Source of the DNA: Promethearchaeia archaeon
GTDB lineage: Archaea > Asgardarchaeota > Lokiarchaeia > Sigyniarchaeales > SOKP01
DNA length: 19,343 bases
Assembly: GCA_029856125.1 (NCBI GenBank)
Contig: JAHQWJ010000123.1
Location: 1 to 19,343, forward strand
Reading direction: 5' to 3'
Under the pieces are notes generated by a model. That model did no database searches. It was not told where the DNA came from and saw only the letters and a program-made list of their open reading frames with translations. Position numbers and translations under genes: made by a program. How positions within the stretch are numbered: position 1 is the first letter of the stretch; each line of letters begins with the position of its first letter. This document shows positions 1,249-19,343 of the stretch, in pieces.

Positions 1249-1950
1249 TTAGTGAGTTTTATTTGTAATTAATAAATCGAAAATGTCTTTTTTAATTTCA
1301 TACTTGTTTTTTAAGTCTGTTTGATCTAAAATATTTCGTATTTCTTCAGGCGTATATCCTGCCATAATCGATGTTTTCCAATAATAACTTATCTCTTTAG
1401 ATATCATTAATTTTGCAATATTAAATATTACCTTAGCACCTAATCCAATATCTCTACGACCGTCACCAACACAAAAGATTCCATTCGGTTTTATTACTCT
1501 AGCTATTTCGTTGAAAACACGTATTGGATTATCCCAGTGGTGTAAGCTATCGTGAGTTATTATAACATCAAATGAATTATCTTTTAATTGAAACATATTA
1601 GTAGCATCTCCGTGTAAAAACACGATACGATCTTTAACACCTTCTTCTTCTACGTTTTTATTTGCTACCCTAATCATATCTTCCGATATTTCCAATCCTG
1701 TTATTTTTAATGTAGGGTTTTCCTGAGCCATGATAATAGTTATCCACCCAGGTCCAGGTCCAATTTCAAGAACTTGAGAATTGTCCTTTACAAATAATTC
1801 GTATAGAATAAACTTCACAAAATTGCGATATTCTTTCATCCTTTTTTTAAATTCTTCGTTTAATTCTTCCATACTGAGCTCAGGCATATCTGTAATTGCT
1901 TCTCCTTCAGGAACTCTTGGAGGAATCTTTTTGCTTTTTGATTTACTCAA
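1249..1950 (-). CDS. Class I SAM-dependent methyltransferase (Methyltransf_11/UbiE-like)
   Basis: Motif I VLEIGPGPG, ITGLEISEDMI, GDA, FDVIITHDSLHHW, RVIKPNG. Start is probably TTG at 1950, since the track's GTG at 1962 lies within an RBS-like AGTGAT. Confidence 0.9.
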   Translation of the reverse strand: MSKSKSKKIPPRVPEGEAITDMPELSMEELNEEFKKRMKEYRNFVKFILYELFVKDNSQVLEIGPGPGWITIIMAQENPTLKITGLEISEDMIRVANKNVEEEGVKDRIVFLHGDATNMFQLKDNSFDVIITHDSLHHWDNPIRVFNEIARVIKPNGIFCVGDGRRDIGLGAKVIFNIAKLMISKEISYYWKTSIMAGYTPEEIRNILDQTDLKNKYEIKKDIFDLLITNKTH

Positions 1951-12027: not shown

Positions 12028-12093
12028 AGCATAAAGGAAGCAGTCCCTTTGTCAACCTTTCACTATGATTTTTTGAAAGGTCTCATCCATGCT
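12028..12093 (-). other. Candidate eukaryote/Lokiarchaeota-type SECIS element in the 3' UTR
   Basis: Minus strand AGCAU-GG-AUGA-GACCUUUCA-AAAAAUCAUAG-UGAAAGGUU-GA-C-AAAGGGA-CUGC-UUCCUUU-AUGCU. AUGA/GA core, 9-bp upper helix, A-rich apical loop, closing AGCAU/AUGCU helix. Confidence 0.7.
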
Positions 12094-12105
12094 TTTTGTT
12101 TTTTT

Positions 12106-12549
12106 TTACTTAAAATAGTGAGCAAAAGTTTTGTGTTCTTTTCCGTATTTTTTCATGATTACTCTCTTGAACATTCCAAAATCGAGTCGTTCTCTCATGT
12201 TATCAGCTCATCAATCGGCGTGGACTATAAGAGTTATGTCGCTGTTCGAATAAAGATTGAAGTTAACATCGTCCAGAAGAGGCATAAACTCTTTGTTCGG
12301 TCCATAGGCATTACATGCACAATCTTCGTAAATCGCATTCTTTTGTGGGTTCCAGATTAATTGGAGATAGCTCTTAATCAGTCCTTTATACATTGGAAAC
12401 GGTGAAAGCTTGGGATTGTTAAGGAGCTGTCTATCTATCGTAGCCAACGCTTCAATTATCGTTCCTTCTTCCTCAATAGATACTTCGTACTCAATTCCGT
12501 TTGCGAGCTCTTTTTCAGGTCCAAAAATTGTTAGTTTAATTTTTTTAAT
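12106..12549 (-). CDS. Candidate ubiquitin-like (MoaD/ThiS/SAMP beta-grasp) selenoprotein with tandem UGA-UGA, 147 aa if both are read through
   Basis: AGGTGA RBS then ATT at 12549. (M)KKIKLTIFGPEKELANGIEYEVSIEEEGTIIEALATID...EDCAC...NFNLYSNSDITLIVHAD-TGA-TGA-ADNMRERLDFGMFKRVIMKKYGKEHKTFAHYFK-TAA. TGAs at 12211-12213 and 12208-12210. The coding region 12211..12549 is well supported; readthrough is inferred. Confidence 0.7.
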
Positions 12550-12594
12550 CTAATATCACCTTTTTAAAAAAGAAATGAATGAAACGAATTAAGC

Positions 12595-13044
12595 TTATAA
12601 TAACCCTTTTTCCTTTAGAAGTCCGGGTAAATCTTTCTTTAATGCGAATGAAGTAATAAATTTCTTTGTACCATCAACGACAACGCAATTGCCATTTAAA
12701 TTAAGTTTACGAGCATCGTCAGAATCTAAGTCTTTTGTTTCAAACCTTATGTGTTTCATATAAGGGCTAAGTGCCGAAAATACAAGGTTCATAAATTGAG
12801 ACCAAACGCATTCGCAAGCGTTCAGAGGAACATATACATCTACGGATAGTTTATTCGTTTCTATATTTGCTGTCTCTTTCAAATTAATTTCGTGAGTATT
12901 AGGCGATTCTTTTGAAGTTGAGCCCTGACAACAAGAATCTGATGAACCACAACAAGAATTTGACGTACCACAGCTTGATTCCTCTAAGTTTATTTGACTA
13001 TTTTGGTTTTCGCTAACCGATATTTTTATTTCTTCTTTTTCCAT
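12595..13044 (-). CDS. Cys-rich protein with a thioredoxin-like/ArsD-like C-terminal domain, putative metalloid chaperone
   Basis: SSCGTSNSCCGSSDSCCQG low-complexity arm, then VDVYVPLNACEC-helix-strand...CVVVDG-helix; located in the acr3 operon. Confidence 0.6.
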   Translation of the reverse strand: MEKEEIKISVSENQNSQINLEESSCGTSNSCCGSSDSCCQGSTSKESPNTHEINLKETANIETNKLSVDVYVPLNACECVWSQFMNLVFSALSPYMKHIRFETKDLDSDDARKLNLNGNCVVVDGTKKFITSFALKKDLPGLLKEKGLL

Positions 13045-13104: not shown

Positions 13105-13467
13105 TTAACCGCAGCAATTTGAAGTTGTTTCACTTTCATCTTCTGGACCACAAGCACAGCTATTTATGTCTTGATTTCCAGATTTGGCATTTTTTGCTTT
13201 TGCTCTCGCGTTCCATAAACAACCGCACCCTTTCTTTTCCATCATAATGATCGCTTCAACGGGACAATTCCTCTTACAAGCACTACACTCAGTACATAGT
13301 TCAGGATTTTTAATTTCGTATTTCCCAGAATCTGTTTGTTGTGGAAGCCCAAAGGGACACACTTCTGCACATAAACCGCATTTATTGCATAAATTTTCAT
13401 TTATAAATATTTTAAAATCTTTTATAGATAATTTGTCTAAACGAGCTTTAAATTCTGCTTCAGTCAT
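13105..13467 (-). CDS. HgcB-like 2[4Fe-4S] ferredoxin with a Cys-rich tail
   Basis: CNKCGLCAEVCP and CTECSACKRNCP, then GCGCLW, SCACG and terminal NCCG; directly follows the hgcA-like gene; GAGGT RBS. Confidence 0.85.
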   Translation of the reverse strand: MTEAEFKARLDKLSIKDFKIFINENLCNKCGLCAEVCPFGLPQQTDSGKYEIKNPELCTECSACKRNCPVEAIIMMEKKGCGCLWNARAKAKNAKSGNQDINSCACGPEDESETTSNCCG

Positions 13468-13520
13468 TATACATACCTCTTAAATATCAATTTCTTTTTA
13501 ATTTTTTGTATTATTTTTTA

Positions 13521-15188
13521 TTAGAAAAAAATGATTCCAATTACTAATGAAATCAAACTTATAGTTAATAAAACTTTATTTAAAATCTTAAAACGGGGGT
13601 ACTCTTCTTGTATTTCACTAGGACTAGTAGCCATCGTATATCCACTTAACGACATGGTTGAAAAAAATGAAACCCAAAGGAAAAAACTTAAGTTAAAAAG
13701 CGTGAAAATTATCGATTTGTGAAATAAAAAAGAGATTATTCCTAAAATAAAAATATTCAAAGTTCCAAAGAAGATTCCCTTAAGAATAAATCGACGAGTG
13801 AAATTTGCTAGTGGATATGTAAAAGTTATGATAAAATTTGCCGTAACTATCCAGAGTAATAATTCGCCAACCCACCATAATTTAGCGAATAAATTAAGAG
13901 AGTTAAGTATAAGGAATACAAGGAATAAACCTATAAGTGGTAACAAGAAAATCTTTCTTAATAAAAATGTTGTATGCGTGATAAAACCACGAAACCGATG
14001 TTTTAGGGTGAATTTCGCAAGTTTCATTCTATCGGGTTTTCGAGCAGGCCTTTTTTCAAGGAACTCGGGTAAATCTTTAGACCAAACAGGTCCATAAACA
14101 ACTCGAAAAGGAAAATCTTTAGATTTTTTCTGCAATTCTGGAGTAGCTACTCCTCCTGCAGATAATTGTGGGAGAATTAAAGTTTTTTTATTCGTTAAAC
14201 TTTCAATACCAGTAGCTTCAACTGCCTCTACTAGTTGGTTATTTCCAAAATCATTTCCTCTCGCAGCACACCACACATTAATACCGTTAGAGTCAACACA
14301 TAATACCCATGCATCAATACCCTTAAGATCTCTCATTACTTTAATGTAAGTGAATTCATAGTTAGCAGTCACTATTATAGGAGAGGATTCAGTAGGATTT
14401 CCAGATTTGTAAATACCGGGATCTATTGGAACGAGATCAATTTGTCCTGTATAAATGCAGCGATATATTCTTAACTGCGATTTTATTCCTTTGAATCGTT
14501 TTGGTCTAGGTTGATAATATCCTGGCTCAGTGATTCCTTCATCGTCGTTCTTTATGAGTTCGAGAGCTTGAATTGTTCCGTGTTTCCAGTCTTTATTACC
14601 TTTGATTTTGAATCCAATTGGTTCAATATAGGTGAAGAACCATTTTAATAGAAAAGTACTCCGTAATTTTAGACGCCTAAGTTTCTTTTTATATCTCCAT
14701 CTTTTTATTTTAAAGATCATTTTCCAAAAACCACTTGGAACAAATTCTGCAGCAATTATTAACTTACCACTTGGTTTTAATACTTTCCAAACATTTCTAA
14801 GGAAGATTTGTTGTTCAAAAGGTCGAAGTTCTGAAAGCATAAACGTGCTAATTACTAAATCTTGAGAATTAGCTTCCACAGGCATGTTGGAAAATGATCC
14901 AGTTTGATATAAGAGCGTTCCTTCCTTCAAATCTGAAGGATAATTCTGCATTGCATGATTAATCATCTGAAAATTTATATCTATCGCCGTAACATTATTT
15001 CCTTTTAACGCCATTTGAGAGGCGAGGCTTCCAGTCCCACATCCAACTTCTAAGATCGATTTAGAGGTACCAATTTTATCAAGTACCCATTCTCTAACGC
15101 TTAAATTTACACCTTTAGTAAGTGCTGTGAATTTAGAATCATAACTATCGGGCTCTTGTTCGAGTTTACGCATGTATACTACGGCCAT
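13521..15188 (-). CDS. Fusion of a class I SAM methyltransferase, an HgcA-like (CdhD-family) corrinoid-binding domain and a C-terminal transmembrane domain
   Basis: N-term ILEVGCGTG, VTAIDIN, VLKPSGKLII. Middle PGIYKSGNP..SPIIVTANY, AWVLCVDSNGINVWCAARG, LILPQLSAGGV, FRVVYGPV. About 5 TM helices with MSLSGYTMATSPSEIQEE. ATG at 15188 preferred over TTG at 15197. Confidence 0.88.
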   Translation of the reverse strand: MAVVYMRKLEQEPDSYDSKFTALTKGVNLSVREWVLDKIGTSKSILEVGCGTGSLASQMALKGNNVTAIDINFQMINHAMQNYPSDLKEGTLLYQTGSFSNMPVEANSQDLVISTFMLSELRPFEQQIFLRNVWKVLKPSGKLIIAAEFVPSGFWKMIFKIKRWRYKKKLRRLKLRSTFLLKWFFTYIEPIGFKIKGNKDWKHGTIQALELIKNDDEGITEPGYYQPRPKRFKGIKSQLRIYRCIYTGQIDLVPIDPGIYKSGNPTESSPIIVTANYEFTYIKVMRDLKGIDAWVLCVDSNGINVWCAARGNDFGNNQLVEAVEATGIESLTNKKTLILPQLSAGGVATPELQKKSKDFPFRVVYGPVWSKDLPEFLEKRPARKPDRMKLAKFTLKHRFRGFITHTTFLLRKIFLLPLIGLFLVFLILNSLNLFAKLWWVGELLLWIVTANFIITFTYPLANFTRRFILKGIFFGTLNIFILGIISFLFHKSIIFTLFNLSFFLWVSFFSTMSLSGYTMATSPSEIQEEYPRFKILNKVLLTISLISLVIGIIFF

Positions 15189-15225
15189 TAATATCAATCC
15201 TATTTAGTTTTTTAATACTTTTTTA

Positions 15226-16344
15226 TTACTTTGAATTAGATTTCCAAAACCCTCGTTTCCCAAGGAATTTTCCAAGATATACCATTGCAAGCATAACAGG
15301 CACTTCCCAAAATAAGCCCATTGTAGTTCCTAAAGCCGCTACGGACCCAACACCATACATTGCGACAGCTGTTGCGATAGCAATTTCAAAGTGACTTGAT
15401 GAGCCGATAATTATGGTAATAATCGCTTCTTTATACTTCATTTTGAAGATCTTAGTAATAAAAACATTGTAAACAACCACTATTACAAAACCTACTAAGA
15501 GTGGAATTGAGATTAGTAGCAACAAATCAGGATTATTTATAAGAACATCGCCGTTTAGGGAAAATAAAACCACTAAAGTTGTCAATAAAGCAACAATTGA
15601 AATTTTTCCTACAAATGGTTTATAGCTATCATTAAACCACGATAATCCTTTCGAAGTGATGATTAATCTCTTACTTACTATCCCTAAAAATAACGGAATC
15701 CCAATGAAGAATATTAAAGAGATTAACAGCAACCATGGATCAACTATAATCCCAGGCGTGAGAATATTTTGAATACCTGTTAATAAAGAAACCATTCCTA
15801 CGTACAAAAAGATTATTGTAATCGTATTTAAGCTTGTATTTACTACATTTTGCTCCTGATTACCCTTCGCCATCCACCCCCAAACTAACACCATAGCCGT
15901 ACAAGGCGAGCTTGATAGTAAAATTATCGCAACTTTTAGTTGTTGTATAGATTCAGTTGTACCCGGTAGAAATATATTAATCATTGCCAAACCTACAAAA
16001 GGAGCTATGAGCCAATTAGAAATTAGTGTTAAGATTATAGGTTTTGGATTTTTACGTAGTTTTTTCAATTCTGATGCTTGTAGATTTAACATCGCAGGGT
16101 ACATCATTAAAAATAAACAAATTCCAATTGGTATAGAAATACCTCCAATTTGCAAAGAATTTATTGCTTGACTTATCTCAGGTATAAACTGGGAGAGCGC
16201 GATACCTATGATGATACAGAGTACCACCCATATAGGGAGAAGCTTTTCGAAGTAGTTAATCTTTCTTGATTTTTGTTTTGCTTCTTCTGAATTATTGCTG
16301 TTGTCTAATATCTTATTTTCAATATTTTCTTCAACCATAATCAT
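15226..16344 (-). CDS. acr3: ACR3-family arsenite efflux transporter
   Basis: LFLMMYP, NWLIAPF, PCTAMVLVW, SSHFEIAIATA, EVPVML; about 10 TM. Start is ATG 16344 or 16338. Confidence 0.95.
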   Translation of the reverse strand: MIMVEENIENKILDNSNNSEEAKQKSRKINYFEKLLPIWVVLCIIIGIALSQFIPEISQAINSLQIGGISIPIGICLFLMMYPAMLNLQASELKKLRKNPKPIILTLISNWLIAPFVGLAMINIFLPGTTESIQQLKVAIILLSSSPCTAMVLVWGWMAKGNQEQNVVNTSLNTITIIFLYVGMVSLLTGIQNILTPGIIVDPWLLLISLIFFIGIPLFLGIVSKRLIITSKGLSWFNDSYKPFVGKISIVALLTTLVVLFSLNGDVLINNPDLLLLISIPLLVGFVIVVVYNVFITKIFKMKYKEAIITIIIGSSSHFEIAIATAVAMYGVGSVAALGTTMGLFWEVPVMLAMVYLGKFLGKRGFWKSNSK

Positions 16345-16396
16345 CAATTAATTTTTGAATTTTCTTTTCTAACTCTATATTCATTTTTAATTTTGG

Positions 16397-16449: not shown

Positions 16450-16516
16450 AAATTTAAGGTTATCGATTTGAGTAAATATGGGGCTCTAAATCCTATAAAT
16501 TTATATTTATCGATTT
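16450..16516 (+). repeat. Imperfect 20-bp direct repeat upstream of arsR
   Basis: AAATTTAAGGTTATCGATTT (16450-16469) and AAATTTATATTTATCGATTT (16497-16516), 17/20 identical. Confidence 0.55.
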
Positions 16517-16525
16517 ATTCATTAC

Positions 16526-16954
16526 ATGTATACAAGAGATATTTTTGAAAATTGGCACGATATGAAGCAAAAAAGAGCTCAAGAAATTAAGAAGATGTTG
16601 TGTACCTGTAAAGATTGCTCAGATTCAAATCCTGATTTCGATAACTTACTAAAATTGGGTAAAATTTTAGAAGAGAATAGGAATTTAGATGCCATTGAAA
16701 GATTTACATCTGCGATTGCATCAAAAGAGCGACTAATTATTATTACTGCTTTAAAAGAACGGGATATGTGCGTTTGTGAGTTAGAAACTATATTGAATAA
16801 ATCACAATCAACAATTTCTCACCATTTAAGAAAGTTAGCTGCTGCGGGGTTAATTCAAGGATATAAAAAGCAGAAATTCACCTTCTACCACCTATTTAAA
16901 GAAGAATTGAAGCAGAACTTAACAACGTTTAATCAAAATTTAGCTGTAGAATGA
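16526..16954 (+). CDS. arsR: ArsR/SmtB-family metalloregulator
   Basis: RLIIITAL..RDMCVCELETILNKSQSTISHHLRKL...GLI (alpha3 CVC site plus HTH); divergent from acr3. Confidence 0.92.
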   Translation: MYTRDIFENWHDMKQKRAQEIKKMLCTCKDCSDSNPDFDNLLKLGKILEENRNLDAIERFTSAIASKERLIIITALKERDMCVCELETILNKSQSTISHHLRKLAAAGLIQGYKKQKFTFYHLFKEELKQNLTTFNQNLAVE

Positions 16955-18888: not shown

Positions 18889-19343
18889 ACGGCTTTTTCC
18901 AGTAAAAAAAACACTATTAACACCTCAGATAAATCATTAATCGAGACTGGTACCTACATACGCAAGGTTATATTAGAGAATTTTTTATCTTTCCAAAGGG
19001 ATGAAGTAAATTTTTCAACCGAAAAAAATAAGGGTATCCCTCGTTTTGTTTTGATAATTGGCCCTAACTGGAGCGGTAAGACTTCAATTTTTCAAGCTAT
19101 TAAATTTGCTTTAGGTAGTAACGAAAGAGATGAGAGATATAAGAAATGGTCTAATTTTATAAGAAACAACCAAGCACACGCTATGGTAGAGCTTCATATT
19201 CAATATCATACAGAAATTATTAAAATTCGTAGAACTGTTGTAAAAGGGAAATCTCCATTTTTTGAATTACAACTTGATAAGGACACAGAATTCAAGAAAG
19301 CTCACGTAACTGAAGTTCAAAAACTAGTCTCCAAGTTAGATAT
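18889..19343 (+). CDS. SMC/Rad50-family ATPase, N-terminal part (partial; SMC5/6-like appearance)
   Basis: YIRKVILENFLSF, LIIGPNWSGKTSIFQAIKFALG, SNFIRNNQAHAMVEL, IKIRRTV. Open to the window end. In-frame TAA at 18883-18885; AGGTGA RBS at 18875-18880 points to ACG at 18889. Confidence 0.85.

Follow-up and report, generated by a model that had tools for sequence, protein, structure and literature searches.

Two adjacent UGA codons in a ubiquitin-like protein family of Lokiarchaeia: a predicted Sec-Sec selenoprotein with a possible link to arsenic and mercury chemistry

Within the window, by which we mean the whole 19,343-nucleotide stretch of DNA that was analysed, one short gene runs into two UGA codons standing back to back and continues behind them for another 33 sense codons, and this raises the question of whether the two codons end a small ubiquitin-like protein or are read as a pair of selenocysteines (Sec), and, in the latter case, what such a pair would be for. 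The first-pass annotation of this locus started from a 78-aa ORF, which it lengthened upstream to an ATT; the ORF has a TTG start (12211-12447), and our analysis confirms that the extension amounts to exactly 34 codons and ends on the ATT at 12549, with a Shine-Dalgarno sequence, AGGTGA, ahead of it (12556-12561, minus strand). Translated with TGA as Sec, the full coding sequence occupies 12106-12549 of the minus strand and gives 147 aa with Sec113-Sec114, and the translation displays the arrangement that had been described: TGA-TGA at codons 113-114 (12211-12213 for the first and 12208-12210 for the second), 33 sense codons (12109-12207) and a TAA stop at 12106-12108. ATT is the commonest start across the family (55/112), an SD-like motif accompanies it in 55/55 ATT-started homologs, and by a crude count ATT starts are not rare in the host genome. 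Two other frames were considered and rejected: the ATG contained in TGATGA opens no conserved ORF, most being 2-14 codons long, and the 103-aa ORF on the plus strand (12049-12360) is a shadow, plus-strand frames being often closed in homologs.

Decoding of the paired UGA codons

A family profile built from 51 members was searched in Lokiarchaeia and other Asgard genomes. Of about 161 Lokiarchaeia genomes searched, 138 (about 86%) contain the family; they belong to seven taxonomic families and include the cultured Ca. Lokiarchaeum ossiferum. The family was not found in 239 other Asgard genomes, where the two weak matches obtained are ordinary MoaD/SAMP1 proteins. All listed full-length matches carry two or three TGA codons, and among the fetched loci (85 genomes, 28 genera) TGA-TGA is kept in 113/113 distinct full-length copies. 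Three subfamilies can be distinguished by the motif: G-C-U-U with 77 copies, all deep-branching members among them, D-U-U-A/S with 29, the clade of the window's gene, and U-G-U-U with 7, which has three Sec; in a midpoint-rooted tree the last two form one clade each inside the host's taxonomic family. The U-G-U-U copies (L067, L068, L078, L093, L096-L098) hold three in-frame UGAs within four codons and usually lie upstream of another member. Two irregular copies, L025 (G016:C78) and L095 (G191:C23), one of which has an extra TGA at a tail Gly codon and the other a frameshift, are possibly broken copies or assembly errors.

The spacing between an upstream Pro-x-Ser and a downstream Arg is equal in the G-C-U-U and D-U-U-A/S classes, so that the two can be aligned without gaps. 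In this register U113 stands on a Cys codon (TGT or TGC) of 77 homologs, U114 on UGA, and the window's Ala115 on the UGA of other members. An alignment of UGA to Cys in homologs, which the first-pass annotation had named as support for Sec, is therefore present at the first UGA; TAA or TAG, which it had named as the sign of ordinary termination, occurs at these codons in none of the 113 homologs. U114 has no Cys counterpart among the 113 copies and is UGA throughout. Compared by sequence, the U-U-A of the window reads as a derived variant shifted by one codon, the form in most homologs being C-U-U. Database searches returned no Cys-only homolog, the full-length matches being gene calls in which TGA was read as W, and the others stopping at the UGA.

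The codons behind the motif evolve as a protein does, as had been anticipated for a translated tail. For the 28 codons that follow the motif pN/pS is 0.22-0.27, against 0.18-0.31 for the 12 that lead up to the UGAs, differences fall mainly at third codon positions, and R121, G136 and Y145 are conserved in what appears as a 33-codon helical tail under purifying selection. Past the UGAs, 112/113 copies keep frame 0 free of stops over 28 codons, whereas each of the other five frames is interrupted in between 46 and 108 of the 113. A plain TGATGA ends only 8/1962 long ORFs of the host genome and yet is kept in every one of the homologs, so TGA-TGA is not there by chance. Reassignment of UGA throughout the genome is out as well, since 256/1962 long ORFs end in TGA.

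The SECIS-like hairpin that had been noticed past the stop proves to be a canonical lokiSECIS. This element was defined as AUGA, a 9-bp stem, an 11-nt A-rich loop ending in G, and GA/AA (PMC4989117), and the window hairpin matches the definition: its core (12051-12086, minus strand, with a lower stem to about 12028-12095) begins 22 nt past the stop and consists of AUGA, a stem of 9 positions with all upper pairs formed (8/8), an A-rich loop of 11 nt (AAAAA...AG) and GAC. The 3.69-Mb host genome contains 13 strict matches to this pattern, of which 7 follow VhuD (3), HdrA, VhuU, PrxL-type and similar known selenoprotein genes or a candidate, 2 follow the window gene and its paralog on contig C112, and the rest are without a convincing upstream Sec ORF. 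Across the family, a SECIS-like hairpin stands behind 100/113 copies versus 5/861 control windows; 98 of the family hairpins start with AUGA, 94 loops finish in G, and compensatory pairs occur in the stems, in a search that itself selected for pairing. Four tandem pairs have the SECIS behind the downstream copy only, which accounts for four of the SECIS-less copies and is the same kind of sharing as in HdrA-VhuD. A strict lokiSECIS also accompanies a small unannotated ORF with one hydrophobic helix and a GGG-U-PSTC motif on contig C50 of the host genome (G000, about 18930-19135, plus strand), a candidate for a further new selenoprotein.

The host has the machinery on which such decoding depends, as the first reading had presupposed: SecS and PSTK, a tRNA-Sec interrupted by introns, and two copies of SelD, each with an in-frame TGA; EFSec was seen in same-genus genomes only. 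The two SelD genes lie in tandem on contig C24 (553-2855, minus strand), with the in-frame TGA in both. The tRNA-Sec(UCA) is found on contig C101 (about 1260-1407, minus strand; L071), directly upstream of SecS, and is split by two apparent introns, in the anticodon loop and in the T loop, because of which Rfam and ARAGORN missed it; it matches the 5' half of the tRNA-Sec of relatives, and after in silico splicing it is recognised as a tRNA, untyped by ARAGORN. A T-loop intron in Loki tRNA-Sec has been published. EFSec was not found in the 153-contig assembly of the host and is present in same-genus genomes (G034/G007) whose copy of the window gene is 91-92% identical; the selB matches of the host were rejected as EFSec, being EF-1alpha, IF2-gamma, other translation GTPases and a truncated SelB-like protein. 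Known selenoproteins of the host are HdrA, VhuD, VhuU and PrxL. At least three components together with known selenoproteins were taken as the mark of Sec machinery in PMC11227280, and by this measure the host counts as possessing it.

From this comparative evidence we are highly confident that Sec is inserted at both UGAs with the aid of the 3' lokiSECIS. A dual outcome may be considered, in which ribosomes would frequently terminate at the UGAs and re-initiate at an ATG or GTG at codon 118, the gene mainly yielding two products, a short ubiquitin-like protein and, apart from it, a peptide of 30 aa, and Sec read-through being minor or selenium-conditional. Codon 118 (12196-12198) is indeed ATG in 26/28 of the window's subfamily, and in the C-U-U copies of the host's taxonomic family GTG makes up 42 of the 53 Val codons at this place, against 13% elsewhere in the same genes. 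However, ATG, GTG and TTG are absent from the six codons past the UGAs in 36/113 copies, Phe, Ile, Tyr or Thr stands at codon 118 in some lineages, codons 115-117 hold their amino acid through synonymous changes as a protein would, and re-initiation leaves the SECIS, the Cys/UGA swap and the third UGA unaccounted for, so we regard this outcome as very improbable. The ATG/GTG bias at codon 118 in the host's taxonomic family may reflect re-initiation or a constraint at the RNA level. An RNA-seq run that includes the locus of a homolog yielded flat contigs of 38 kb, which are uninformative on expression. That the pair is a plain double stop, or Sec followed by a stop, with the tail untranslated, which the first-pass annotation had allowed and which agrees with databases annotating the family proteins as ending ahead of the UGAs, has a next to negligible probability and is effectively refuted by the constancy of TGA-TGA (never TAA/TAG in any copy, though 71% of the host's stops are TAA), by the coding-type conservation of the tail and by the homologous second UGA having turned into an Ala codon, not another stop, in the window's subfamily.

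Fold, operon and proposed function

The first-pass annotation had placed the two UGAs on the di-glycine of a beta-grasp protein, and Foldseek, VIA, AlphaFold2 and hhalign agree with this. Residues 1-112 (12214-12549, minus strand) make up a SAMP1/MoaD-like beta-grasp domain with an insertion, and the best structural matches over residues 1-114 are SAMP1, CysO, MoaD and Urm1 (Foldseek versus SAMP1: prob 1.00, E 1.3e-3, TM 0.67 by target; VIA: CysO Z 7.3 with rmsd 3.2 over 83 aligned, SAMP1 Z 6.8), the structural Z values being middling and tied with those of transcobalamin beta domains. The AlphaFold2 model, with Cys for Sec, reaches pLDDT 93.6 and pTM 0.90 over the full chain and includes the tail in the folded chain, the UU loop being its least confident part (pLDDT 67). 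According to hhalign, which aligns the family with Asgard SAMP1/MoaD at 92.7% (E 4e-7), codons 113-114 come after the last aligned column, on the Gly-Gly of these proteins. A Gly-Gly end with a free carboxylate is absent, its place being taken by U-U or C-U and then 32-53 residues, and this puts the family outside the carrier families as defined. We propose that the old SAMP/MoaD Gly-Gly end would have become an internal Cys/Sec loop, capped by the conserved helical tail, and such a replacement would make adenylation or conjugation impossible for the protein as made.

The window gene is the last of a co-oriented run on the minus strand. The run opens with the Acr3 arsenite efflux transporter (15226-16347) and continues with a CpaM-like methyltransferase fused to an HgcA-like corrinoid/membrane domain (13521-15197, below cut-offs), an HgcB-like 2[4Fe-4S] ferredoxin with a Cys-Cys-Gly end (13105-13467, below the HgcB cut-off) and, directly upstream of the gene, a Cys-rich small protein (12595-13044) that has no Pfam, NCBIfam or PDB match and is a neighbour at 37/56 family loci; an ArsR/SmtB regulator (16526-16954, plus strand) is transcribed divergently. 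The HgcA-like domain carries the motif NVWCAARG, and the fusion together with the HgcB-like ferredoxin recurs at 16/56 family loci, with ArsM at 5; these two genes (13105-15197) may possibly serve a corrinoid-based methylation of arsenic or mercury. A perfect, AT-rich palindrome of 12 bp (16494-16505) lies between acr3 and arsR and is a possible ArsR operator. In the host's taxonomic family acr3, arsR, arsM or arsC is found near 41/56 loci (with flanks mostly of 4-5 kb per side), often as the adjacent gene. Outside it, ars genes are near 3/20 loci only; of the others, 3 lie by aldehyde:ferredoxin oxidoreductase, 4 by a cation-efflux gene, and the rest, the copy of Ca. L. ossiferum among them, by unrelated genes. 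The host's own paralog (contig C112, 44036-44497, minus strand; L051) belongs to the G-C-U-U class, has its own SECIS and does not belong to an ars operon, lying near an AOR gene and downstream of a Sec-peroxiredoxin-like gene.

Each main subfamily has three conserved Cys/Sec residues, as C-U-U, U-G-U-U, or U-U with Cys77 (12319-12321, minus strand), which is invariant in the D-U-U-A subfamily (28/28) and is a candidate third ligand. The internal CAC, to which the first-pass annotation had drawn attention, did not survive the comparison: C79 is present in 1/28 of the subfamily, and only C77 is kept. Cys77 arose once, in one clade, Val or Ile occupying the position in most other members, and it is absent from one D-U-U-S member; from the beta-grasp topology we infer that it would be close to the UU loop, and it may be buried. 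ArsR-family proteins hold As(III)/Sb(III) by three cysteines (PMC11212059), and CU motifs are present in organometal systems (10.1101/2022.07.06.499078).

It is the three conserved Cys/Sec residues, combined with the nearness of ars genes at 41/56 loci, that make the binding of As(III) or a soft metal the best mechanism, and we give an even chance to the suggestion, drawn from sequence and gene context, that the protein is a scavenger or chaperone for As(III)/Sb(III), for a methylated form of these or for some other soft metal. The Sec loop would then bind such a ligand with high affinity and would buffer the bound As(III), methylarsenical or soft metal or pass it on, while the protein as a whole would act in the cytoplasm, where its partners would be the exporter Acr3 and, from the same ArsR-linked operon, the methyltransferase/corrinoid proteins. 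The earlier proposal that the Sec pair binds As/Hg is plausible: gene context and the constant count of three Cys/Sec speak for it, whereas the argument from CAC is lost and the ars context is mainly that of the host's taxonomic family. This restriction weakens the case for metal binding, as do kin that are not independent of one another and a Cys77 that may be buried. No sequence homology to ArsD was found, and sequence searches of Pfam, NCBIfam (all 51 aligned members) and PDB gave no match to the family.

The same Sec-Sec protein might also be a general redox protein, a vicinal diselenide or selenenyl-sulfide reductant which restores partners such as ArsC, ArsM, corrinoid or peroxiredoxin proteins to the reduced state and has been drawn into ars operons in one taxonomic family only. 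Most selenoproteins are redox enzymes (PMC13188914), the deep-branching members lie beside AOR/ferredoxin, prismane or FAD oxidoreductase genes and not ars, and the second copy of the host is about 2.9 kb from the Sec-peroxiredoxin-like gene; however, the protein has neither a thioredoxin fold nor CxxU spacing, and a constant count of three residues with shifting spacing would be less expected of a fixed redox couple than of a site that binds a ligand, so we consider this role rather unlikely. Improbable, in our opinion, is a MoaD/SAMP descendant that still carries sulfur or now carries selenium, with a perselenide or persulfide on the Sec pair or with a cleavage that exposes a Cys/Sec end, and that is used to make the tungsten/molybdenum cofactor, to supply SelD or to store selenium. 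Descent from sulfur carriers and the position of UU on GG would fit a carrier, and so would three basal loci that lie between or ahead of ferredoxin and AOR genes, MoaD-like genes being found beside AOR genes. Against it, there is no free C-terminal GG, the tail is modelled within the folded chain, and no E1-like, JAMM or cofactor-synthesis gene appears among the recurrent clusters of the partly annotated neighbours.

Returning to the metalloid site, we put forward the whole picture tentatively, as somewhat short of evenly balanced: a near-universal Lokiarchaeial family would have turned the tail of a ubiquitin-like carrier into an obligate Sec-Sec (up to three-Sec) metalloid site, decoded with one eukaryote-type SECIS and tied to As/Hg methylation and efflux.

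Novelty and comparison with known systems

Databases hold the family as truncated hypothetical proteins. It is absent from the seven Asgard families of PMC11227280, from the five of PMC4989117 and from the table of PMC13188914, and the literature searched, which was for the most part outside subscription journals, held nothing relevant on tandem Sec or on ubiquitin-like Asgard selenoproteins; homology-based screens may have missed the family for want of a Cys-only homolog. We consider it a real selenoprotein family that is apparently not described in the searchable literature. The recoding system is already known, and the undescribed parts are apparently the family itself, the adjacent Sec-Sec and the ubiquitin-like scaffold.

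Archaeal selenoprotein families numbered 11 as of May 2026, with no adjacent U-U in the motif table (PMC13188914), and this short list would gain one more. Decoding of back-to-back UGAs with a eukaryote-like SECIS would be a strict natural test of the choice between Sec and termination on Asgard ribosomes. We know of no SBP2 in the Asgard lineage. A ubiquitin-like scaffold would have been repurposed to selenol chemistry, and, if the proposed function is true, cultured relatives of eukaryotes would have selenium use coupled to the methylation and efflux of arsenic or mercury. Since the gene is present in the cultured Ca. Lokiarchaeum ossiferum, at about 3628640-3629116 of CP104013.1 on the minus strand, proteomic spectra can be searched directly with the corrected sequence.

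Among known systems, the lokiSECIS genes HdrA, VhuD, VhuU, PrxL and SelD (PMC4989117, PMC11227280) are alike in the recoding signal and its 3' position, but the family is not homologous to any of the listed 7 Asgard or 11 archaeal families, and its two UGAs are directly adjacent. With SAMP1, MoaD, CysO and Urm1 it has in common the beta-grasp fold and profile homology, its Cys/Sec standing on their Gly-Gly positions; in contrast to them it has a domain insertion, a conserved 33-residue tail and no Gly-Gly or free C-terminus, and it matches none of the NCBIfam models for SAMP/MoaD carriers. The three-Cys sites of ArsD/ArsR, and SaoC, SaoL, SaoB, HgcA and HgcB (CU motifs, 10.1101/2022.07.06.499078), have clustered Cys/Sec as our family does, and these metalloid and organometal proteins, too, are found in operons with arsenic exporters, corrinoid or methyltransferase genes. 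Their folds, however, are unrelated to that of the family, and they carry one Sec per motif (CU), whereas the family, in which metal binding is only predicted, carries U-U or C-U-U.
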